A stretch of DNA of 64,000 bases from Acidobacteriota bacterium (lineage in GTDB: Bacteria > Acidobacteriota > UBA890 > WLXD01), in NCBI GenBank assembly GCA_965248695.1, contig CBDFKD010000002.1:1056001-1120000 (forward strand), given 5' to 3'. The first letter of the stretch is position 1; every line of letters begins with the position of its first letter. Below, one piece after another: positions 1 to 37,470 of the stretch. Position numbers and translations under genes: made by a program. The notes under the pieces are model-generated. The model worked only from the letters and a program-made list of their open reading frames with translations. It searched no databases and was not told the origin of the DNA.

Positions 1-232
1 CCATGCGCGGAACCATGCCGATGATGTCGTCACCGAGCTCGGTCCAGATGCAGATCGGGTGCGCGGACCCGTCATCGTCCACCATGCCGAAGAGGGCGCC
101 GTTAACGGTCGGGTCCTCCTGGTAGGCCATGTAGAGCGGCTCCAGCTCCGCCGCGTCGAAGAGACCCCGAACGATGATGAACCCATCGCGCGCGTACGCC
201 GCAATCTGTTCGTCCGTCAGACGCACGCTCAT
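1..232 (-). CDS. Phytanoyl-CoA dioxygenase (PhyH) family Fe/2OG oxygenase, N-terminal part (runs off the left edge)
   Basis: Manual translation gives MSVRLTDEQIAAYARDGFIIVRGLFDAAEL..., a typical PhyH N-terminus; GGAG RBS upstream. Not in the ORF track. Confidence 0.75.
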   Translation of the reverse strand, partial: MSVRLTDEQIAAYARDGFIIVRGLFDAAELEPLYMAYQEDPTVNGALFGMVDDDGSAHPICIWTELGDDIIGMVPRM

Positions 233-301
233 GGCTCTGCCTCCGTTGGTCCTGGGGGGGGGGGTCGCGTACTCCGCGTGCTGGTGAATCTGGAGCAGGG
301 A

Positions 302-2134
302 CTAGCTCCGGCGATATACCAACCTCGACGCGCCCTGGGATGGCAAGCCTTCGATCCTCACTTCGATGGTCATGACCTGAGTATCGTCGCTCAGCGTCAT
401 CACCTCGCGGACCTGAATGACGGTAACGCCGCGCTGATGCGTACCTTCGTTAACCAGCTCGCCGCCGTCCCATCGCGACGCGATGGTCATCGTGTTCGGC
501 TCGCCATCGTCCGCCAGGATGGGCACGGGGCTCTCGCCACCGATGGCGTAGGCGCGCGCCTGGGTGGGGTTGTCCTGGCTCGACAGCAGCAGCGTACCGT
601 TCGCAGCCTGGGTGACGAACAGAACTAGCGGCGCGCCGGCGTCGCCGAGACCGGCGAGCGCGGCGGTGGTTCCGATCTCGCTGGCGGCGCGATCGAGCTC
701 CCAGATGCCCGAGAGGTCCGGGTGGATACTGGCGCTGGTCGCCGCGGGCGTGGCAGCCCTGCTCGGCGACACGTCGGGTGGAGTCGCCGTCTGTTCGCCG
801 TCGGTCATCGCCGCCGCTGATGAAGCCGCCGTCGACCCAGGCACGCCCAGGTCCAGCGCCACGATCCTTTCGCGATCGCGGGCGTAGAGGGTGGTGCCGA
901 CCAGCGTCGGCACGGTCCACGACACCGTGTCGAAGAGCGGAGCGCGCGCCAGCACGGTCATCCCTTCGGGTGTCATGCGGGCCAGCGCCAGGTCGCCGTC
1001 CTCGTCCATGACGATAAACTTGTTGTCGGCGTATACCAGGCTGGCGCGCTTGAAGCCGCGCTGCTGCCAGGCGGGCTCGCCAGTGCGAACGTCGAGTGCG
1101 GTCATGAACGCCGGCCCGAAGGTTCCGCTGGTTCCGTAGACGTAGCTGCCGCGCCGGATCGGATTGAGAAACATGAACGGTATGCGCGACGTGAACCAGA
1201 GTTCCTCGGTCCGCGTCAGCTCGCCGTCGAGTGTCAAACGCAGTCCGCGGCTTCCCGCTCGGTACCCGGACGACACGACCAGGATGTTGTCGTCTCCCCA
1301 TTGCGGCGCGATCATGTTGAGGTCGTTGCCAGGGTCGTGCGGCACCGCCCACAGCACCCGGCCGTCATCGGGATCGACGCCAACGACGCTGCCGCCGGCC
1401 AGATAGACCAGCTGTGTCTGTCCATCCAGGTTGATGAGCACCGGCGGCGAAGGCGAGAACAGAAAGTCGCCGCCGCGCCACACCACGGCGCCATCGCGCT
1501 GCCGGAACGCCATGAGCGACTGTCCGGGTCCACCCACCGGGACGATCACGGTGTCGTTGTACGCGATGGGGCTATTGCCGTATCCCGACTTGACGATCGC
1601 CCGGATGAGGTTGGGCGGAGCGTCGAAGTCGGCGACCAGGTCATGCGACCAGAGCACCTCGCCAGTGCGCTTGTCGAGCGCGAAAAGCTGCTTGTTGGTG
1701 CCGGCAGCGAACAGACGGTCGCCGACCAGCAGCGGCGTAGCGTGCGGGCCGGCGCCGAAATCGAAGTTCTCGTGTCCCGATGGGTAGGTGTGCTCCCAGA
1801 TCGTTGCACCGTCAGAGGCATCGAGGGCAACGATGATCTCCTCCTCATCCCACGGCCCACCGCGATCCGCTCCGTTGCCGACGCGATATTGCGTAAACAG
1901 GCGCCCGTCTTCGGCGAGGATCGCCGAGTGACCGGTGCCGAGCGCACGGCTCCAGAGCACCGGGGGACCTTCTGCGGGCCAGCTGTCGGCAAGGCCGGTG
2001 ACCTCGGAGACGAAGTCGCGTCCCGGTCCACCCCACTGACGCCACCCCTCCGTCTCCTGCAACGGAGAGGCGAGGGATGCCAGACCGGCGAGGGTCGCAG
2101 CGCCGACAGCGGCGACGACGAATGAGTTCCGCAT
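302..2134 (-). CDS. Secreted PQQ-binding-like beta-propeller protein (BamB-like repeats) with an extra C-terminal domain
   Basis: Signal peptide, WRQWGGPGRD start of mature domain, repeated 'ALDxxxGxxxW' tryptophan-docking motifs, Ala/Thr linker, then a 'PDLSGIWELD' beta domain. Confidence 0.8.
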   Translation of the reverse strand: MRNSFVVAAVGAATLAGLASLASPLQETEGWRQWGGPGRDFVSEVTGLADSWPAEGPPVLWSRALGTGHSAILAEDGRLFTQYRVGNGADRGGPWDEEEIIVALDASDGATIWEHTYPSGHENFDFGAGPHATPLLVGDRLFAAGTNKQLFALDKRTGEVLWSHDLVADFDAPPNLIRAIVKSGYGNSPIAYNDTVIVPVGGPGQSLMAFRQRDGAVVWRGGDFLFSPSPPVLINLDGQTQLVYLAGGSVVGVDPDDGRVLWAVPHDPGNDLNMIAPQWGDDNILVVSSGYRAGSRGLRLTLDGELTRTEELWFTSRIPFMFLNPIRRGSYVYGTSGTFGPAFMTALDVRTGEPAWQQRGFKRASLVYADNKFIVMDEDGDLALARMTPEGMTVLARAPLFDTVSWTVPTLVGTTLYARDRERIVALDLGVPGSTAASSAAAMTDGEQTATPPDVSPSRAATPAATSASIHPDLSGIWELDRAASEIGTTAALAGLGDAGAPLVLFVTQAANGTLLLSSQDNPTQARAYAIGGESPVPILADDGEPNTMTIASRWDGGELVNEGTHQRGVTVIQVREVMTLSDDTQVMTIEVRIEGLPSQGASRLVYRRS

Positions 2135-27183: not shown

Positions 27184-28671
27184 GTGTCGAACCTTCGCCG
27201 GTGTGCGGTTGCTCTGGCCGCGGCGATCATGGCGCTGGCAGGCGGCGGAAGCGGGGTGATGGTCCTTGCGGCTCCCGACCGTCCGAACGTCCTGCTGATC
27301 CTGGTCGACGATCTTGGTTACATGGACATCGGGGCCAACAACCCACAGACGTTCTACAACACACCGAGCATTGATCAGCTCGCAGCCGAAGGCATGCGCT
27401 TCACCAACGGCTACGCCGCCAACCCGGTGTGCTCGCCGACGCGCTACAGCATCCTTACCGGCAAGTACCCGACGCGGGCACGGGCCACCGATTGGTTTTC
27501 GGGAACGCTGACGCAGCGCTTCTTGCATGCGCCCTTCGCCGATCGGATGCCGCTCGAGGAGCGCACGTTGGCGGAAGTCTTGGGGGAGGCCGGTTACGCG
27601 ACGTTCTTCGCCGGCAAGTGGCATCTCGGTCCGACCCCGGACTACTGGCCGGAAGCACAGGGGTTCGATGTTAACAGGGGCGGTCACGAGCGCGGTGGAC
27701 CCTACGGCCCAGGGCGATACTTCACCCCGTACGGTAATCCTCGACTCGCTGACGGACCTCCTGGCGAGCACCTGCCATCGAGGTTGGCGCGTGAGACGGT
27801 CGAGTTCATCCGCGCCCACCAGGAGCAGCCGTTCTTTGCCTACCTGGCCTTTTACTCCGTGCATACGCCGCTCATGGCCCCGCAGCCGCTGGTCGACAAG
27901 TACGCCGCCAAGGCGGAAGCGATGCAGTTGACGGAGCGCGACCCGTTCGGTGAAGAGGAGCAGGTCTGGCCGGACGCACCGTTGCGACAGGTGCGTGAGC
28001 TTCAATCGCATGCGGTCTATGCCGCTATGGTCGAGTCGATGGATCGCGCCGTGGGCACCGTGCTCAGCGCGCTCGAGTCCGTCGGGCTGGCCGACGACAC
28101 GATGGTGTTGCTGACATCGGACAACGGCGGCCTATCGACCTCCGAGGGCCTGCCGACCAGCAACCTGCCGCTGCGCGGTGGCAAGGGATGGGTCTACGAA
28201 GGCGGCATTCGCGAGCCCTTCATCGTTCGCTGGCCGGGCGTTACGCGACCCGGGTCCGCGTCGGACGAACCGGTAATGAGCATCGACCTGTTTCCGACTG
28301 TTGTGGAGGCGGCCGGATTGTCGCCCGGCGATCCGACGGTCGACGGGATGAGCCTCGTGCCGCTGCTGCGCGATGGCGGTCCGCTGACGCGCGAGGCGCT
28401 CTTCTGGCACTACCCGCACTACTCCAATCAAGGCGGCTTTCCGGGCGGTGCCATTCGCGCCGGGCGCTGGAAGCTGATCGAACGCTACGAAGATGGCCGT
28501 ACACACCTCTTCGATCTAGACGCTGACATCGGCGAGCAGCACGACCTTGCCGCGGCGCGACCACGGCAGGTCGCGGAGCTACGTCAGCGTCTGCACCGCT
28601 GGTACGAGGATGTCGACGCGCTGTTCCTGCGCCCCAAGCCGGGCGGGCCGGCGCCCTGGACGCCACAATGA
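27184..28671 (+). CDS. Cys-type sulfatase, secreted
   Basis: PNVLLILVDDLG, CSPTR formylglycine motif, GKWHLG, SDNGG, RGGKGWVYEGGIREP. Confidence 0.95.
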   Translation: MSNLRRCAVALAAAIMALAGGGSGVMVLAAPDRPNVLLILVDDLGYMDIGANNPQTFYNTPSIDQLAAEGMRFTNGYAANPVCSPTRYSILTGKYPTRARATDWFSGTLTQRFLHAPFADRMPLEERTLAEVLGEAGYATFFAGKWHLGPTPDYWPEAQGFDVNRGGHERGGPYGPGRYFTPYGNPRLADGPPGEHLPSRLARETVEFIRAHQEQPFFAYLAFYSVHTPLMAPQPLVDKYAAKAEAMQLTERDPFGEEEQVWPDAPLRQVRELQSHAVYAAMVESMDRAVGTVLSALESVGLADDTMVLLTSDNGGLSTSEGLPTSNLPLRGGKGWVYEGGIREPFIVRWPGVTRPGSASDEPVMSIDLFPTVVEAAGLSPGDPTVDGMSLVPLLRDGGPLTREALFWHYPHYSNQGGFPGGAIRAGRWKLIERYEDGRTHLFDLDADIGEQHDLAAARPRQVAELRQRLHRWYEDVDALFLRPKPGGPAPWTPQ

Positions 28672-29651
28672 GACGATGTTCGATGCTCCTGGGACTGGTG
28701 CTCGCTACGATGTTGGGCGGCGGCCCGATGCAGGCGCCGGCGCCCGGCGACGCGGTCAGCGTGACGATTCCGGGTACGCCGGTCACGTTCGAGATGGCCT
28801 TCGTCCCGGGCGGCGTATTCGAGCTCGGTAGCCCGGTCGACGAGGTCGGCCGCGACGAGGATGAAGGCCCAGTGCGGCAGGTTCGAATCGAGCCGTTCTG
28901 GATGGGCGTGCACGAGGTAACCCACGACGAGTTCGCGGTCTTTCGATACCGCCGACTGGACGATCACGTCGGCGCCGCTGCCGAGCTGCCATTCGACGCG
29001 GACGGCGTGAGCCGGCCGAGCCCGCCATACGAGGACCCCGCCCACGGGATGAACAAGGCCGGGCATCCTGCGGTGGGCATGACGCGCTGGGCGGCGTTGC
29101 AGTACGCCCGCTGGCTCTCGCACAAAACCGGACAGTTGTACCGTTTGCCCACCGAGGCCGAATGGGAGTACGCCTGTCAGGCCGGCGAAGACCGTGCCTA
29201 CGGGTTTACCGCCGTCGCCGACCTTGGCGCACATGCGTGGCTGGTAGACAACAGCGAGGGCTCGTACCACGCGGTCGGACTCAGGGAGCCCAATGTGTGG
29301 GGCCTGTACGATCTGCACGGCAATGTCGCCGAGTGGGTGGCCGATCGCTACGACGATGCACTCTACGCCAGCCTCGCGGGTGGCGAGCCCGTCGCGGCGC
29401 CGATATCGGGGGCGCCCGGCCAGGGACAGGGCTTGGTTCGCGGCGGCGCCTACGGTGACGGGCCGGCCGAAGCTCGCTGCGCAGCGCGGTTCCCGGAGAC
29501 TGCCTACTGGAAGCGGCGCGACCCGCAGATACCCAAGAGCCGCTGGTGGAACACAGATTCGGAACACGTCGGATTTCGAGTCGTGCGCCCGGCGCGCGAA
29601 GTGACGCTCGACGAGGTCCAAGCGTACTGGAACGCGATCTTCGGCGCGTAG
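28668..29651 (+). CDS. FGE-sulfatase (SUMF1/EgtB/PvdO) fold protein
   Basis: HEVT, RLPTEAEWEYAC, PNVWGLYDLHGNVAEW, RGG, GFRVVR; signal peptide; ATGA overlap with the sulfatase. Confidence 0.9.
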   Translation: MRRCSMLLGLVLATMLGGGPMQAPAPGDAVSVTIPGTPVTFEMAFVPGGVFELGSPVDEVGRDEDEGPVRQVRIEPFWMGVHEVTHDEFAVFRYRRLDDHVGAAAELPFDADGVSRPSPPYEDPAHGMNKAGHPAVGMTRWAALQYARWLSHKTGQLYRLPTEAEWEYACQAGEDRAYGFTAVADLGAHAWLVDNSEGSYHAVGLREPNVWGLYDLHGNVAEWVADRYDDALYASLAGGEPVAAPISGAPGQGQGLVRGGAYGDGPAEARCAARFPETAYWKRRDPQIPKSRWWNTDSEHVGFRVVRPAREVTLDEVQAYWNAIFGA

Positions 29652-29684
29652 TACCGTGCCATCCTAGCCTTGCACGGAGGAGTC

Positions 29685-31007
29685 ATGAACAGGCGAGATT
29701 TCGTAAGGACGAGCACGGCCGCCGCCGTCGGCGGCCTGTCGCTGAGCCGACCAGAGGCATTGCGCGCACAGCCGCCGACGGCCGATGCGATCCGTGTCGG
29801 GGTGGTCGGTTGCGGGGGCCGCGGCACCGGGGCGGCCGTCCAGGCGCTGAGCACGGCGCAGGACGTCAAGCTGGTCGCCATGGCCGATGCGTTCGACGAC
29901 AACGTGCAACGGAGCTACGAAACGCTCATGTCGTTCGAGCGCGAAGACTGGCTCGGCGGCGACAGCGATCTACGGGCACGCGTCGACGTGCCTCCCGAGC
30001 GTCGCTTCTCGGGATTCGACGCCTACAAGCAGGTGTTGCCGTTGGTCGATGTGGTCATCCTGACCACGCCGCCTGGCTTCCGGCCGACCCACTTCGAGGC
30101 GGCGGTCGCGGCCGGGAAGCAGATATTCATGGAGAAGCCCGTGGCCACCGACGCCCCCGGGGCGCGGCGCGTCTACGAGGCCGGCAAGCACGCCCACGAC
30201 AAGAAGCTCAACGTTGTTGTCGGACTGCAGCGCCACTACCAGGACATGTATCGCGGCTGGGTGGATCGGATTCACGCCGGCATGATCGGCGACGTGATCC
30301 TTGGTCGCGTTTATTGGAACGGCGCCGGCGTGTGGGTGCGGCCGCGTACGCCGGAACAGACCGAGATGGAGTACCAGATGCGTAACTGGTACTACTTTAA
30401 CTGGCTGTGTGGCGACCACATTGTCGAGCAGCATATCCACAACATCGACGTGGCCAACTGGGTAATGGACGGGCACCCGGTTCGCGCCCAGGGACAGGGC
30501 GGGCGCCTGGTGCGCACCGGTAAAGACCACGGCGAGATCTTCGATCATCACTTCGTCGAGTTCGAGTACGAGAACGGCAGCCGCGTCCTAAGCCAGTGTC
30601 GCCACATACCGGACTGCATGGACCGCGTCTCCGAGGGCTTCCACGGCACCAACGGCACCGCGCCGCGGCCAGGGGTGATCCTCTCCAAGAGCGGCAAGTC
30701 GCTGTTCGAGTACGATGACGGCGCCGACCCGAATCCCTACCAGGTGGAGCACGACGAGCTGTTCGCGGCGGTAGCCGCGGGCGAGTACACCTACGCCGAC
30801 ACCGAGCGTGGCGTGGTGGCGTCGATGACGGCGGTCCTGGGTCGGATGGCCACCTACTCCGGCCAGGTGGTCGAGTGGGATCAGGCGATTGCCTCGGAGC
30901 TCGACCTGATGCCGCCGCGGCTCGCCTGGGACGCGGCACCGCAGGTGGTTCCTGACGCCAACGGGGCGTACCCGATCCCCACCCCCGGCGTCACTCGAGC
31001 GTTCTGA
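29685..31007 (+). CDS. Tat-exported Gfo/Idh/MocA family oxidoreductase
   Basis: MNRRDF Tat motif, GCGGRGTG, MEKPVA, EQHIHNID. Confidence 0.92.
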   Translation: MNRRDFVRTSTAAAVGGLSLSRPEALRAQPPTADAIRVGVVGCGGRGTGAAVQALSTAQDVKLVAMADAFDDNVQRSYETLMSFEREDWLGGDSDLRARVDVPPERRFSGFDAYKQVLPLVDVVILTTPPGFRPTHFEAAVAAGKQIFMEKPVATDAPGARRVYEAGKHAHDKKLNVVVGLQRHYQDMYRGWVDRIHAGMIGDVILGRVYWNGAGVWVRPRTPEQTEMEYQMRNWYYFNWLCGDHIVEQHIHNIDVANWVMDGHPVRAQGQGGRLVRTGKDHGEIFDHHFVEFEYENGSRVLSQCRHIPDCMDRVSEGFHGTNGTAPRPGVILSKSGKSLFEYDDGADPNPYQVEHDELFAAVAAGEYTYADTERGVVASMTAVLGRMATYSGQVVEWDQAIASELDLMPPRLAWDAAPQVVPDANGAYPIPTPGVTRAF

Positions 31008-31019
31008 GGTAGGCCTCGG

Positions 31020-31968
31020 GTGCGACGACGCGATTTCATGGGAGCGCTGGCCGGCGCGGCGGTGGCCTGGGGACCCTCCGTCGGCGCGACGACTCCAGAT
31101 CCTGTTGCCCTGGCACCGACGAGGCGTTTCCCGGCAGGGGCCACACAAGATCCGTTCGGGCTCGACTACGCGCCGCACCTCGGGATGTTCCGCGAGACTG
31201 GCGGCGAGGATCCGATCAGCCAGCTGCAGTTCATGGCAGCGCAGGGGTTTCGCGCGCTCGAGGACAACGGCATGCGGGGCCGGTCGACTAGCGAGCAGGC
31301 CGACATCGCGGCGGAGATGTCGCGCCTCGGCATGCGCATGGGCGTGTTCGTGGCCCACACGATCTACTGGCGCGAACCTGGCCTCGCCAGTGGCGATGCC
31401 GACAAGCGTGCGGAGTTTCTCTCCGAGATTCGTTCGTCGGTAGAGGTTGCCAAGCGCGTCAACGCAACCTGGATGACGGTGGTCCCCGGGCACGTGGACC
31501 TGAGGGTTCATCCTGACTACCAGACAGCGAACGTCGTCGAGACGCTCAAGCAGGCCACGTCCATCCTGGAGCCCCACGGCTTGGTGATGGTAGCTCGAGC
31601 CGCTGAACCCACGCGACCATCCCGGGTTGTTCCTCAAGGGAATTCCGCAGGCGTTCCAGATCTGCCGGGCGGTCGACAGTCCGGCGTGCAAGATCCTCGA
31701 CGACCTCTACCACCAGCAAATCAGCGAGGGGAACCTGATTCCCAACATCGACGCGGCCTGGGATGAGATCGCCTACTTCCAGATTGGCGACAATCCGGGC
31801 CGCGATGAGCCGACGACCGGCGAGATCAACTACAGCAACGTCTTCCGGCACATTCACGACAAGGGCTTCGACGGGATCCTCGGCATGGAACATGGGAACT
31901 CCCAGCCCGGCCGCGCCGGCGAGTCGGCGGTGATCGAGGCGTACCGGATGGTTGATGTCCGGCGCTAG
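31020..31968 (+). pseudogene. Tat-exported hydroxypyruvate isomerase/xylose-isomerase-like TIM barrel, frameshifted near 31592
   Basis: MRRRDF Tat motif; ...GLVMV then LEPLN...DLYHQQISEGNL...QIGDNPGRDEPTTGEINY in another frame; may be a sequencing indel. Confidence 0.8.
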
Positions 31969-33589
31969 CCCACCCGCGTGGCGGCCAGCCGCGCGCAGCT
32001 CGGCGATCGTGTTGTGTGCGGCGTTGCTTGTCGTCATCGGTGCGCCGGTGCCGGCGGGCTCTCAGCAGCGGGGCTTCCGCCTGCAGGGCGGGGGCACCGG
32101 TGTATTCCTCGACGGCTCGGCGGACCACGTGATGCTGGCGCGCCCGAATCTCGATGGCACCGTTCGACTCGAGTGCGTCAGGGGTGACCGCCACACGGCG
32201 CGGGAGCTGCTCCGCGCGGCGGCCGACAGTCGACAACCGACGGCGGAGATGACGAGCCCGGACGCGCGCGAGGATGACCGGCGGGCGCGCAGCGGGCGGG
32301 CGGCGGTCGCGGCACAGATGCGATTCGATGCTGACTTTCCGACCGGCGTTGACGGTGCCGGCCGGGTACTGCTGTACATGCCCAAGCCGATCGAGTCCGG
32401 GTCGAGCGGGTCGCACTTTGATCGCTCCGCCAGCCCCGACCTGCTCATGGAGCCGTCGGTGTCCGACGTTCTACCATTCGCCGACGTCGATCTGACCGAC
32501 GACGCTCTGCGCGACATGGGGTGGCGGCAAGGAACGTTTCGCTCGGAGCTGCGCTTTACCGACGCCGACGGCAGCGGGTTCAACGACCCGTCGCTGGGGC
32601 CGACACGACAGGCGGCGATGCGCTTCGCGCTAGGCATCTGGGAGCGGCTGCTGGGCAGCGCCGCACCGGTGACGGTGGACGCCGGGTTCGACGACCTGTC
32701 GTGCTCCCCCGACGACGGCGCCGTGCTCGGACAGGCCGGACCGCAGTTCGTTTTTTCCGGATTCGCCGGCAGCAAGCCCGGCGTGGTGTATCCAGGTACT
32801 ACCGCGGAGTCGATCGCCCGGTCGGCGCTCGGGGATTCCGACGCCGCCGACATCGTGATCACCTTCAACTCCGCCGTTGATGACGCCTGCCTGGGGGCAG
32901 GAAGTAGCTGGTACTACGGCCTGGATGACAACGCAGCGCCGTCGCAAGTGGCCTTCCTGCCGGTAGCTCTCCACGAAATGGGGCACGGGCTCGGCTTCCT
33001 CGGGCTGACCAACCTCAACACCGGCGCCTTCAACTCCGGTCTCCCGGACATTCTGGCGACGATGACCTTCGACAACCAGCGCAATCGCACCTGGGACGAG
33101 TTGTCCGCTGCCGGGCGCCGCAAGTCCGCTGTGCGCGACGGCAAGGTAGCCTTCACAGGTGCCAGGACCACGCGCAAAGCGCGGACTCTGCTGCGGGGCG
33201 CCCAGGTCCTGCAGATCACCGATCCGGCGAACCTGGCCGGCACTCACGTAGTCGGCCGCGCGTTCTTCGGCCCGGAGCTCGACGAGGCGGGCGTGACCAA
33301 CGACCTGGCGCTCGTCGATGATGGGACCTCGACGCCGACGCTGGGTTGTGCTGCTCTGGTGAACGGCGACGAGATTGCCGGCAAGATCGCGGTGATCGAC
33401 CGCGGCGAATGCCGCTTCGACGCCAAGGTGCAGACCGCACAAGATGCCGGTGCCGTCGGGGTCGTGGTGATCAACAACGTCAGCGGATCGGCGATCAGCA
33501 TGGCTGGCGAGGACGGCTCGATCGTCATTCCCGCCGTCATGGTGGACAAGAAACTCGGCAACAAGATCAAGCGTCGCCTCAGGAAATAG
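31955..33589 (+). CDS. Secreted zinc metallopeptidase with PA domain (apparently circularly permuted)
   Basis: Signal peptide, HEMGHGLGF, PA domain GKIAVIDRGECRFDAKVQTAQDAGAVGVVVINN, SHFD...LMEP block located N-terminal to HExxH. Confidence 0.8.
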   Translation: MSGASPPAWRPAARSSAIVLCAALLVVIGAPVPAGSQQRGFRLQGGGTGVFLDGSADHVMLARPNLDGTVRLECVRGDRHTARELLRAAADSRQPTAEMTSPDAREDDRRARSGRAAVAAQMRFDADFPTGVDGAGRVLLYMPKPIESGSSGSHFDRSASPDLLMEPSVSDVLPFADVDLTDDALRDMGWRQGTFRSELRFTDADGSGFNDPSLGPTRQAAMRFALGIWERLLGSAAPVTVDAGFDDLSCSPDDGAVLGQAGPQFVFSGFAGSKPGVVYPGTTAESIARSALGDSDAADIVITFNSAVDDACLGAGSSWYYGLDDNAAPSQVAFLPVALHEMGHGLGFLGLTNLNTGAFNSGLPDILATMTFDNQRNRTWDELSAAGRRKSAVRDGKVAFTGARTTRKARTLLRGAQVLQITDPANLAGTHVVGRAFFGPELDEAGVTNDLALVDDGTSTPTLGCAALVNGDEIAGKIAVIDRGECRFDAKVQTAQDAGAVGVVVINNVSGSAISMAGEDGSIVIPAVMVDKKLGNKIKRRLRK

Positions 33590-34135: not shown

Positions 34136-35728
34136 ATGCGTTCATCCCGACGATTCAGCGTCGCGTTGCTGTTGGTCCTGACGTCAACGGCGCTCGCTCC
34201 GACCGCCGCTGTGACAGCACAGACTGCCGGCGTCGCTGCCGCCCCGACGACCGGGAGCGAGATCAGCCTGTCAGCGGAGTTCGACGTCTGGGCGCTGGAG
34301 CTGCTCGAGGAATGGCATATCCCGGGCCTGGCGGTGGGAGCGACCGTCAACGGCGAGGTCGTGCTGCTGAAGGGTTATGGCTGGCGGGACGTCGAGAACC
34401 GTCTGCCGGTGACCCCCGACACATTGATGGCGATCGGCTCGAACTCGAAGTCGTTCACGGTATTGCTCATGGCGCAGCTGGTCGACGAGGGAAAGCTCGA
34501 CTGGGACGCGCCGGTGCGCCGCTACCTTCCCGATTTCCGCATGTATGACGATTACGCCACCGAGCACATGCGGGTGAAGGATCTGGTAACTCACGTCTCC
34601 GGACTGCCGCGGCACGATGTCCTCTGGTACGGACGTAGCTTCGATCGGGAGCAGCTCTTTGAGCGTCTGCGCTACCTGGAGCCGACGCTATCGTTTCGCG
34701 CTGGCTACCAGTACCAGAACCTGATGTTCATGACCGCTGGATACCTGGTCGAGCGGATCACCGGGCGCTCCTGGGATGACCTCATCCGCGAGCGCATCTT
34801 CGAGCCCCTCGACATGCAGCGCTCCAACACGTCGGTTATCGACATGCCGGGCTCTGGGGACTTCGCCTGGCCCTACGAGGTCCGCAACGACGAGCCCGGG
34901 CGCGTGCCCTTCCGCAACATCGATAGTGTCGGGCCGGCCGGGTCGATCAACTCCAGCGTGACGGAGATGCTGCGCTACATCGATACGCGAATCGGGGGCG
35001 GCGAAAGCGGCGACGTCCGCATTGTGTCCGAAGAGCAGGAACGACAGATCAAGCGGCCGCACTCGGTTTCATCGGGAGGTATTTCCGGGCCGATCTACCC
35101 GGAGCTCGGGCCCTCGACGTATGGGCTCGGCCTGGCGGTGAGCTCGTACCGCGGACACCGGGTGGTGAACCATGGCGGCGGCATCGACGGGTTCATCTCA
35201 CAGATGGCGTGGCTTCCGGACGCCGGCGTCGGAGTGATGGCGTTGACCAATGGCGCCGGTGCCGCCAACCCGGTGCCGGATCTCGTCATGCGGCGGCTGT
35301 TCGACGAGCTGACCGGGCTCGACCCCATCGACTGGAACGCTCGCGTCCGCGAGCGCATCGCTGAGGGGCTCGCCCAGGCCGAAGCGGAGAGGGAGAAGGT
35401 CGCGGCCTCGAGGGTGCCCGGAACCTCGCCGAGCCATGGGCTGGATGACTACGCCGGTACATACGTGCATCCTGGCTACGGGACGGTGCAGGTCGCCGTC
35501 GGAGAGCAGGGCCTGGAGGTGACGTTCGATCAGTTCCGCGCCGGCCTCAAGCACCACCACTACGATGTGTTCGAGCTCGACGAGGAAGCACTCCCGGAGG
35601 CCGATCGGAGCGAGGGCGTTCTCCAGGGGCTAGTCGCCTTCCGCATGAGCAAGGCGGGAACGATCATCAGCGTCGAGTTGCCGCTGGAGCCGGCCGGAGC
35701 CGACATCGTGTTCGAGCGTTCCGAATAG
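34136..35728 (+). CDS. Serine hydrolase, beta-lactamase class C-like, with DUF3471-like C-terminal domain
   Basis: Signal peptide, SNSK, YQN, HGGGIDGF, YAGTYVHPGYG. Confidence 0.9.
   Translation: MRSSRRFSVALLLVLTSTALAPTAAVTAQTAGVAAAPTTGSEISLSAEFDVWALELLEEWHIPGLAVGATVNGEVVLLKGYGWRDVENRLPVTPDTLMAIGSNSKSFTVLLMAQLVDEGKLDWDAPVRRYLPDFRMYDDYATEHMRVKDLVTHVSGLPRHDVLWYGRSFDREQLFERLRYLEPTLSFRAGYQYQNLMFMTAGYLVERITGRSWDDLIRERIFEPLDMQRSNTSVIDMPGSGDFAWPYEVRNDEPGRVPFRNIDSVGPAGSINSSVTEMLRYIDTRIGGGESGDVRIVSEEQERQIKRPHSVSSGGISGPIYPELGPSTYGLGLAVSSYRGHRVVNHGGGIDGFISQMAWLPDAGVGVMALTNGAGAANPVPDLVMRRLFDELTGLDPIDWNARVRERIAEGLAQAEAEREKVAASRVPGTSPSHGLDDYAGTYVHPGYGTVQVAVGEQGLEVTFDQFRAGLKHHHYDVFELDEEALPEADRSEGVLQGLVAFRMSKAGTIISVELPLEPAGADIVFERSE

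Positions 35729-36054: not shown

Positions 36055-37470
<1,416 letters not shown>

Follow-up and report, generated by a model that had tools for sequence, protein, structure and literature searches.

Metzincins keep a fixed linear order in which the HExxH motif, the third zinc ligand and the Met-turn follow one another, and their substrates and pro-peptides lie along the edge strand. Leishmanolysin (GP63, MEROPS M8; PDB entry 1LML) has an HExxHxLGF-type helix, a large insert, and then a distant third His in GSxxSH, with LMxP 11 residues on and an LT...DxG helix; we take H334 of 1LML to be the third zinc ligand, M345 to be the Met-turn residue and HExxHALGF to be the motif. These sequence features recur in the protein family described here, which we studied from one gene in a 64,000-nt stretch of DNA from Acidobacteriota bacterium (UBA890; WLXD01), assembly GCA_965248695.1, contig CBDFKD010000002.1, positions 1,056,001-1,120,000 of the forward strand. 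The whole stretch is referred to as the window, and nucleotide positions are counted from its first letter. Unlike leishmanolysin, the family is bacterial, its insert is a protease-associated (PA) domain, and a Cys-bearing partner, encoded separately or fused, stands in place of the N-terminal pro-peptide; the window protein, in addition, has its subdomains in rotated order. We consider it likely that this protein is the precursor of a secreted leishmanolysin-like metzincin, with a small module fused in front of rotated subdomains that form a single zinc site as in its relatives. The class of enzyme is ordinary; the clade-wide chain topology and the split or fused putative pro-domain partner are unusual.

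Relatives with the canonical order (e.g., P0060 and P0115; from Xanthomonas, Lysobacter, Massilia, Acidobacteriota, and Eisenbacteria) carry the same segments and motifs and the upstream partner gene. They are 35-41% identical to the window protein over the N-terminal (upper) catalytic subdomain (NSD) and PA domain, and 40-58% over the C-terminal (lower) catalytic subdomain (CSD). Type IX secretion system (T9SS) sorting domains or FlgD-Ig domains often follow the CSD in these relatives; the window protein has neither. The recorded name of the relatives is merely "PA domain-containing protein," and a Pfam scan of the window protein found no catalytic-domain model for the family, which comprises 2264 clusters at 50% identity in a profile search (E <= 1e-30). 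NCBIfam NF038122 (metallo_LGF) is alike in the HExxHxLGF region and matches all 110 relatives scanned (best E 6e-17), with the window protein scoring 42.7 bits against a cut-off of 80. A literature search, in which subscription journals were poorly covered, returned no account of circular permutation in a metzincin or zincin peptidase, of the PA-inserted LGF family, or of a bacterial leishmanolysin with a PA domain; in a passage search of PMC3650047, "circular permutation" was met solely in a reference title.

The window protein is a circular permutant

The gene is a single uninterrupted open reading frame (ORF) of 545 codons with a TTG start (Table 1); an alternative ATG one codon on (31955) gives a 544-aa protein identical to the recorded protein P0002. 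The initial annotation had read its domains as a signal peptide, a Cys-containing module, an SH/LMEP block, HEMGHGLGF and a terminal PA domain, and translation returned this order with every position exact. The lower-subdomain motifs, GRVLLYMP..GSSGSHFD..LLMEP..DLTDDALRDMGW, occupy residues 137-191, DLTDDALRDMGW being a helix, and hold the candidate third zinc ligand H155 (nt 32414-32416) and the Met-turn candidate M166 (nt 32447-32449). GFNDP (residues 209-213) and HEMGHGLGF (residues 341-349, nt 32972-32998, starting with H341) come after them. The PA domain, at the C-terminus, is the sole domain recognised by Pfam (PF02225, residues 453-539, 68.3 bits versus a cut-off of 23.9, E 6.5e-19).

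BLASTP of the window protein against nine canonical members gave two high-scoring segment pairs in swapped order in 9/9 cases. Against P0060, window residues 204-543 aligned with residues 34-389 (NSD and PA; 41% identity, E 1e-77), and window residues 132-195 aligned with residues 406-469, behind the PA domain of P0060 (CSD; 58% identity, E 1.6e-18). Five proteins with the order of the window protein aligned to it collinearly. A word-indexed search yielded 255 relatives, 120 of them listed. In a motif scan of 121 proteins, the LMEP block came ~175-210 residues ahead of HExxH in 56, whereas in 61 HExxH stood near residue 185 and the block past the PA domain, near residue 430; four were incomplete (P0019, P0029, P0036, and P0065). 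Hidden Markov models (HMMs) were then built for the CSD (residues 116-195), NSD (196-415), PA (416-545) and N-terminal module (MOD), and run on the 268 family proteins assembled after an exhaustive profile search. Architectures were NSD-PA-CSD in 172, CSD-NSD-PA in 82, multi-unit giants in 11 and partial in three. Thus the block GSSxSH..LMEP..DLT..D.GW lies behind the PA domain, where the initial annotation had expected it, in 172/268 relatives and in 67 of 74 classifiable loci, and the order of the window protein is not that of most homologs. MOD stood in front in 17 of the 82 permuted and three of the 172 canonical proteins.

Since the CSD, NSD and PA segments each occur once per unit, the change is a cyclic rotation and not a duplication. 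Self-BLAST of five long relatives (P0078, P0095, P0091, P0112, and P0113) found no internal repeat. Two segments of the window protein are therefore similar to one homolog in swapped order, with none lost or duplicated, and the protein is a real circular permutation from NSD-PA-CSD to CSD-NSD-PA, as had been proposed from the sequence. These proteins make matched natural pairs of canonical and permuted enzymes (35-58% identical) in which the order of folding, the latency of the zymogen and the function of the Met-turn can be approached. They also bear on annotation: motif- or profile-based identification of proteases that looks for the third ligand after HExxH would miss or mislabel the permuted enzymes.

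The giants (P0122-P0125, ~4960-5260 aa; P0130, P0136-P0138, P0140, and P0142, ~3500-3730 aa) contain three to five copies of the catalytic domain in the canonical NSD-CSD order with no PA insert, hundreds of residues apart, and look like multi-protease polyproteins.

Fold and putative zinc site

An AlphaFold2 (AF2) model of the window protein, made from a 53-row alignment, had a mean predicted local distance difference test score (pLDDT) of 87.4 and a predicted template modelling score (pTM) of 0.84. The moved block (pLDDT 81-97) and the module (78-93) were well defined, and only the signal region and the linker (97-118) poorly so. The model of canonical P0115 was comparable (pLDDT 89.3, pTM 0.83). 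Foldseek with the whole permuted model against the PDB gave 24 matches at E <= 0.001, to PA domains only. VIA-align (wide), a sequential aligner run against 48,161 PDB representatives, brought out the catalytic fold. The best non-PA match of the canonical model was leishmanolysin 1LML (Z 14.0, rmsd 4.3, 208 residues aligned; model 20..465, chain 102..371), extending across the PA insert into the His/Met block; further metzincins followed (MMP-2, -9, and -12, Z 8.4-8.5; serralysin, 7.0; snapalysin, 6.8; ADAMs, ~6). The window model matched 1LML through its upper subdomain only (Z 6.4, 159 aligned, model 193..518; MMPs ~5.5), the outcome to be expected when a sequential aligner meets a permuted chain. 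Its PA segment (model residues 416..545) matched structures at Z 13-15, among them 2EK8 (Z 15.0) and 4TJV (Z 13.9). The full canonical profile against the PDB hit 1LML at E 0.015, exactly on the His/Met block, and the His-to-Met spacing in the block is 11 residues, the same as in 1LML. The one metallopeptidase family to appear in the Pfam scan at E <= 1 was Peptidase_M10, with a weak match (E 0.12). Taken as models, these structures give the family a metzincin/leishmanolysin-like fold.

In the usual layout of the family, the PA domain is inserted between the upper subdomain, with HExxH, and the lower one, with the candidate third His and Met-turn and a C-terminal helix. The canonical model enters the PA domain via strand 256-264 and leaves it, after helix 377-385, via strand 392-402. 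In the window model, the chain ends with the PA helix 533-544, the moved block begins with the return strand (119-126), and the old C-terminal helix (182-188, ..DMGW) is tied to the old first strand (198-202) by ~10 residues. As modelled, the chain is opened directly behind the last PA helix. The rotated chain would fold to the zinc site of its relatives, with H341, H345 and H155 as ligands of one zinc, E342 as general base and M166 below the metal, and would be catalytically active. A clade with the lower subdomain ahead of the upper one suggests that a rotated chain can still build the metzincin fold and its zinc site.

The N-terminal module and its upstream partner gene

Residues 36-96 of the window protein form a module, which includes GTGVFLDGSADHVMLARPNLDGTVRLECV (residues 47-76), with predicted strands at 41-43, 49-52, 59-65 and 71-77 and a helix at 80-93. 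NCBIfam NF047450 (post-PEP-CTERM-1) scores the window copy (residues 36-79) at 12.7 bits (E 0.17, cut-off 28); it matches 12 of 53 permuted relatives (best E 5e-8) and two of 57 canonical ones (best E 2e-14). A search of a protein atlas with residues 36-100 gave no usable match. An HMM of residues 36-96, built from 15 module-bearing permuted proteins and P0095, linked the window copy to its module-bearing relatives (E 4.5e-27 for the locus of the window). Run on 81 loci, comprising 80 from species-representative genomes and the window's own, it was positive at E < 0.01 in 36. In three of these (L001, the window locus, L002, and L006) the module is fused inside the protease ORF, and in 33 it is a separate same-strand ORF ending just upstream of the protease gene, four with permuted (L003, L004, L005, and L007) and 29 with canonical proteases. 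A separate small upstream gene with a DG...CV module, which the initial annotation had expected, was thus found. The separate partners, ~120-190 residues long, begin with a signal-like stretch and carry the module at their C-terminal end; past the signal they usually contain one Cys. The column of Cys75 is C in 36/36 copies. As had been suggested, the module is fused in the window gene, and this is a derived state within the clade; N-terminal fusion is found also in three of the 172 canonical proteins.

Two side observations concern module-bearing sequences. A Pyrinomonadaceae metagenome-assembled genome (L024) has two canonical protease genes in tandem, with ORFs ending at ~2230 and starting at ~2769, and the partner ORF between them (2293-2868) appears to encode two modules (HMM residues 23-52 and 127-173). 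P0010 (621 aa), a close permuted relative, has a glutaredoxin-like segment (PF05768, residues 7-79) in front of the module, which could stem from a fusion in gene calling or indicate a thiol-redox connection with the module Cys.

Prediction of a complex between residues 36-100 and residues 113-545 with a riding zinc, from an alignment of our own, gave a score of 0.82 (runs 0.84, 0.82, and 0.81; best of three controls 0.00; verdict, supports binding), which is the confidence of a model for two pieces of one natural chain and not a measurement. The score mark is reached by 58 of 80 solved complexes and two of 110 mismatched pairs, rates that are rough here because the alignment is our own and a small molecule is present. 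The runs shared at least 89% of contacts, with partner pLDDT at least 72. On the protease side, the predicted interface comprised residues 148-151, 154-155, 168-170, 172, 247-274, 337-338, 341-342, 345 and 350-352. The pairs of lowest error set module residues 49-52 and 59-63 alongside strands 257-269, residue 59 against H345, and residue 61 against V338, H341 and E342. C75 lies inside the interface range 70-80, and the prediction reported no Cys-zinc contact. On this prediction, the module occupies the substrate cleft much as a pro-peptide would. H155 and the segment past the Met-turn line the same predicted pocket as HExxH, indirect support for one zinc site. We know of no like complex, and memory of pro-metzincin structures in the prediction is possible.

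These features suggest a mechanism in which the protein would be secreted via Sec, with a module that is a fused copy of the small secreted protein otherwise encoded directly upstream. Seated in the substrate cleft, the module would keep the enzyme latent, possibly with C75 as a fourth zinc ligand. Activation would follow from cleavage within the disordered linker 97-115, whose length and sequence vary across the alignment of permuted relatives and which may be the processing region, and the PA domain would aid substrate binding. A small lone-Cys unit predicted in the cleft resembles the cysteine switch of MMPs and ADAMs and the inhibitor gene adjacent to serralysin; the fold of four strands and a helix is unlike the helical MMP pro-domain, and the module may also reach the enzyme in trans, secreted as a protein of its own. 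The conserved Cys-bearing partner encoded upstream would point to a pro-domain usually encoded as its own gene.

Several findings weigh against this reading, in addition to the nature of the complex score. The lowest-error contacts with HExxH come from module residues H59 and M61 and not from C75, and the H59 column is variable (36 copies: H 7, N 7, S 7, D 4, E 3, Q 3, other 5), so that a cysteine switch, which we regard as a hypothesis, is unsupported in detail. Resemblance to leishmanolysin M8 is structural and at the level of motifs only, since the Peptidase_M8 profile (PF01457) found no match at E <= 1. With a block-only profile (60 sequences), 1LML was the top PDB match and GSxxSH-(11)-LMxP..LT..DxG aligned, with an E of 0.83 that is weak and not significant alone. 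The proposal of a single zinc site draws on a shared predicted interface and on homology. Finally, no duplication intermediate (CSD-NSD-PA-CSD) was present among the 268 proteins and five longer ones (E <= 1e-20).

Real as the permutation is, the module could have a role other than inhibition: it might assist folding as a chaperone, serve in secretion or sorting, or act as an adaptor that binds substrate or surface. The post-PEP-CTERM-1 name, the sole library name, hints at exosortase sorting; it comes with no described function, and the term post-PEP-CTERM was not found in the literature search. Moreover, 65 of 82 permuted proteins are without a fused module, the module HMM is positive in only 36/81 loci, and H59, nearest to H345 in the model, is the unconserved position just described. 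Against these points, the docked strand 59-63 runs along edge strands 257-269 and against H341, E342 and H345, as a substrate or pro-peptide would, the module has an invariant lone Cys, and its tight same-strand adjacency or fusion to the protease fits a dedicated regulator. Chaperone and inhibitor roles are, in any case, compatible. We think a module with no inhibitory function the less probable case, though one to be taken seriously.

Evolution of the permutation

Trees were built for the NSD-PA region and, second, for NSD-PA with the CSD, using 50%-identity representatives and 23 hand-picked sequences from 254 proteins. FastTree (160 rows, 38 permuted) needed four order changes, at least three of them forced by starred branches. 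IQ-TREE in quick mode, on 83 rows (the 38 permuted and 45 canonical, i.e., every third canonical leaf and six named ones), also needed four, at least two of them forced. It recovered a clade of 36 permuted proteins with canonical P0154 (Shimodaira-Hasegawa-like approximate likelihood ratio test, SH-aLRT, 95) and placed permuted P0181 and P0201 among canonical proteins.

Instead of a single origin in an ancestor among the Acidobacteriota, the permuted order could have had several origins, or have reverted. Both trees' label changes, the position of P0154 within the 37-row permuted clade, and the placement of P0181 and P0201, with their differing, membrane-anchor-like C-terminal tails, speak for this. 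Yet the approximately unbiased (AU) test did not reject a single clade of all 38 permuted rows (delta lnL 18.87, p 0.371), the branches around P0181 and P0201 are poorly supported (51 and 73), the cut point is identical in all permuted proteins, and P0154, P0181 and P0201 come from a library without genomic context. We find several origins possible but, on balance, doubtful. A bolder version is more improbable still: that the family has repeatedly rotated around its PA insert, independently in P0181 and P0201 and by reversion in P0154, and has a dedicated secreted cysteine-switch pro-domain that acts in trans or in cis. If true, such a pro-domain would amount to a split-off pro-peptide system not described for metzincins.

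The tails of P0181 and P0201 consist of a PTL or IPTV motif followed by a hydrophobic helix and basic residues at the C-terminus, and look like a C-terminal sorting or anchor signal; the window protein has none.

Tandem NSD-PA-CSD pairs were absent from the 268 proteins and the five longer ones, absence among long proteins being weak evidence. A duplicate-and-trim route to the permutation is unsupported. An apparent extra match beyond the CSD in P0095 and P0078 was confirmed neither by self-BLAST nor by the HMM architectures. The giants are not obvious permutation intermediates, as their units are hundreds of residues apart and not immediate tandem repeats.

Constraint on the catalytic motifs

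To compare the two orders, 53 permuted proteins, with identities down to 39%, and 57 canonical ones were aligned separately. H155, L165, M166, E167, P168, H341, E342, H345, G346, L347, G348 and F349 were invariant in the permuted set, and the equivalent motif residues were invariant in the canonical set; the motifs read in the window protein are thus no chance matches. Since the motifs are invariant in both sets, both halves of the putative zinc site are equally constrained in either order. The metzincin HExxHxxG motif is present as HEMGHGLG (341-348), with H341, E342, H345 and G348 invariant. Four cysteines (251, 313, 466, and 487) were also invariant in the 53 permuted sequences; these could pair among themselves, leaving C75 free.

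It might be argued that the His/Met block is the relic of a lost upstream copy of the protease, so that the protein would be inactive or a differently liganded PA-domain protein, given that no C-terminal lower subdomain lies behind the PA domain and that the permuted model matches 1LML weakly (Z 6.4). A relic would be expected to degenerate, whereas H155, M166, E167 and P168 do not vary across 53 sequences down to 39% identity. The block has pLDDT 81-97 in a model of pTM 0.84, its residues 148-155 and 168-172 belong to the predicted pocket that also holds H341, E342 and H345, and a low Z is what a sequential aligner is expected to give on a permutant. We regard a relic as very improbable.

Distribution among genomes

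An HExxH ORF was recognisable in 74 of the 81 loci, seven of them permuted (L001-L007) and 67 canonical (63 by LMEP position and four more by SH position). Named records for the permuted loci are Acidobacteriota, Thermoanaerobaculia, Sulfomarinibacteraceae and Multivoradales. Canonical loci occur in Gammaproteobacteria (Xanthomonas, Lysobacter, and Dyella) and Betaproteobacteria (Massilia, Duganella, and Roseateles), and also in Acidobacteriota, Eisenbacteria, Krumholzibacteriota and others. The protease gene is present in one copy in its own 5.89-Mb genome. A search of 40 relatives of that genome for the full-length gene found it in 4/4 other genomes of the genus (63-71% identity), in 2/6 genomes of other genera of the family, in 0/15 of the sister family and in 2/15 of other families of the phylum, one of the last being a PA-only match. 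One copy from another genus of the family, apparently broken, consists of two adjacent matches (G007:C2:3903635-3905192; query 21-231 and 233-544), the latter of which contains a TGA, and this ortholog is probably a broken gene. The three same-genus loci checked were all MOD-CSD-NSD-PA. The permutation is therefore not an event peculiar to the window gene and is instead a clade-wide trait, mostly of Acidobacteriota/Thermoanaerobaculia.

An artefact, whether from misassembly, chimerism of the contig or miscalling of the gene, might be suspected in a 2-contig draft in which the gene directly upstream looks frameshifted. It is effectively refuted, because the ORF is uninterrupted and the same arrangement is seen in 82 independent protein clusters of several sources, in 7/74 loci of species genomes and in 4/4 same-genus genomes.

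Features of the gene and its neighbours

Coordinates of the gene and its parts are given in Table 1. In the signal-like region, the AF2 model has a helix (18-28) of low pLDDT, and the cleavage site is a putative one. A scan for sigma-70 promoters found 0 sites, and terminator-like matches (3 versus 1.5 expected) are uninformative in a region of 67% GC.

Table 1. Coordinates of the protease gene and the parts of its product in the window.
Feature	Position (nt)	Strand	Basis or remark
Whole gene: putative 545-aa secreted metalloprotease precursor	31952..33589	+	stop 33587-33589
Signal-peptide-like N-terminus, residues 1-35: basic stretch, then hydrophobic AIVLCAALLVVIGAPVPAGS	31952..32056	+	read from sequence
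Partner/pro-domain-like module, residues 36-96: four beta strands and a helix, Cys75 in LECV	32057..32239	+	AF2, HMMs
Charged low-confidence linker, residues 97-115	32240..32296	+	pLDDT 51-62; 97-102 <50
Transposed C-terminal (lower) catalytic subdomain (CSD)	32297..32536	+	BLASTP to P0060, conservation, AF2
N-terminal (upper) catalytic subdomain (NSD), invariant Cys251/Cys313	32537..33196	+	BLASTP to P0060, conservation
PA (protease-associated) domain, invariant Cys466/Cys487, ends the protein	33197..33586	+	Pfam PF02225, structural matches

Directly upstream (31020-31968, +) lies a gene for a xylose-isomerase-like TIM barrel (Pfam AP_endonuc_2), whose coding sequence is divided between overlapping frames, with ORF 31020-31766 covering profile positions 2-123 and ORF 31627-31968 covering 139-234. 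The apparent frameshift would mean a pseudogene or an assembly indel, and the end of this gene overlaps the start of the protease gene. The neighbours at 28668-31007 and 34136-35728 appear unrelated to the protease; neighbouring products comprise an FGE-sulfatase family protein, a GFO/IDH/MocA oxidoreductase with a twin-arginine-like N-terminus and a secreted beta-lactamase-fold protein with DUF3471. PntB is encoded at 36055-37470 on the opposite strand.

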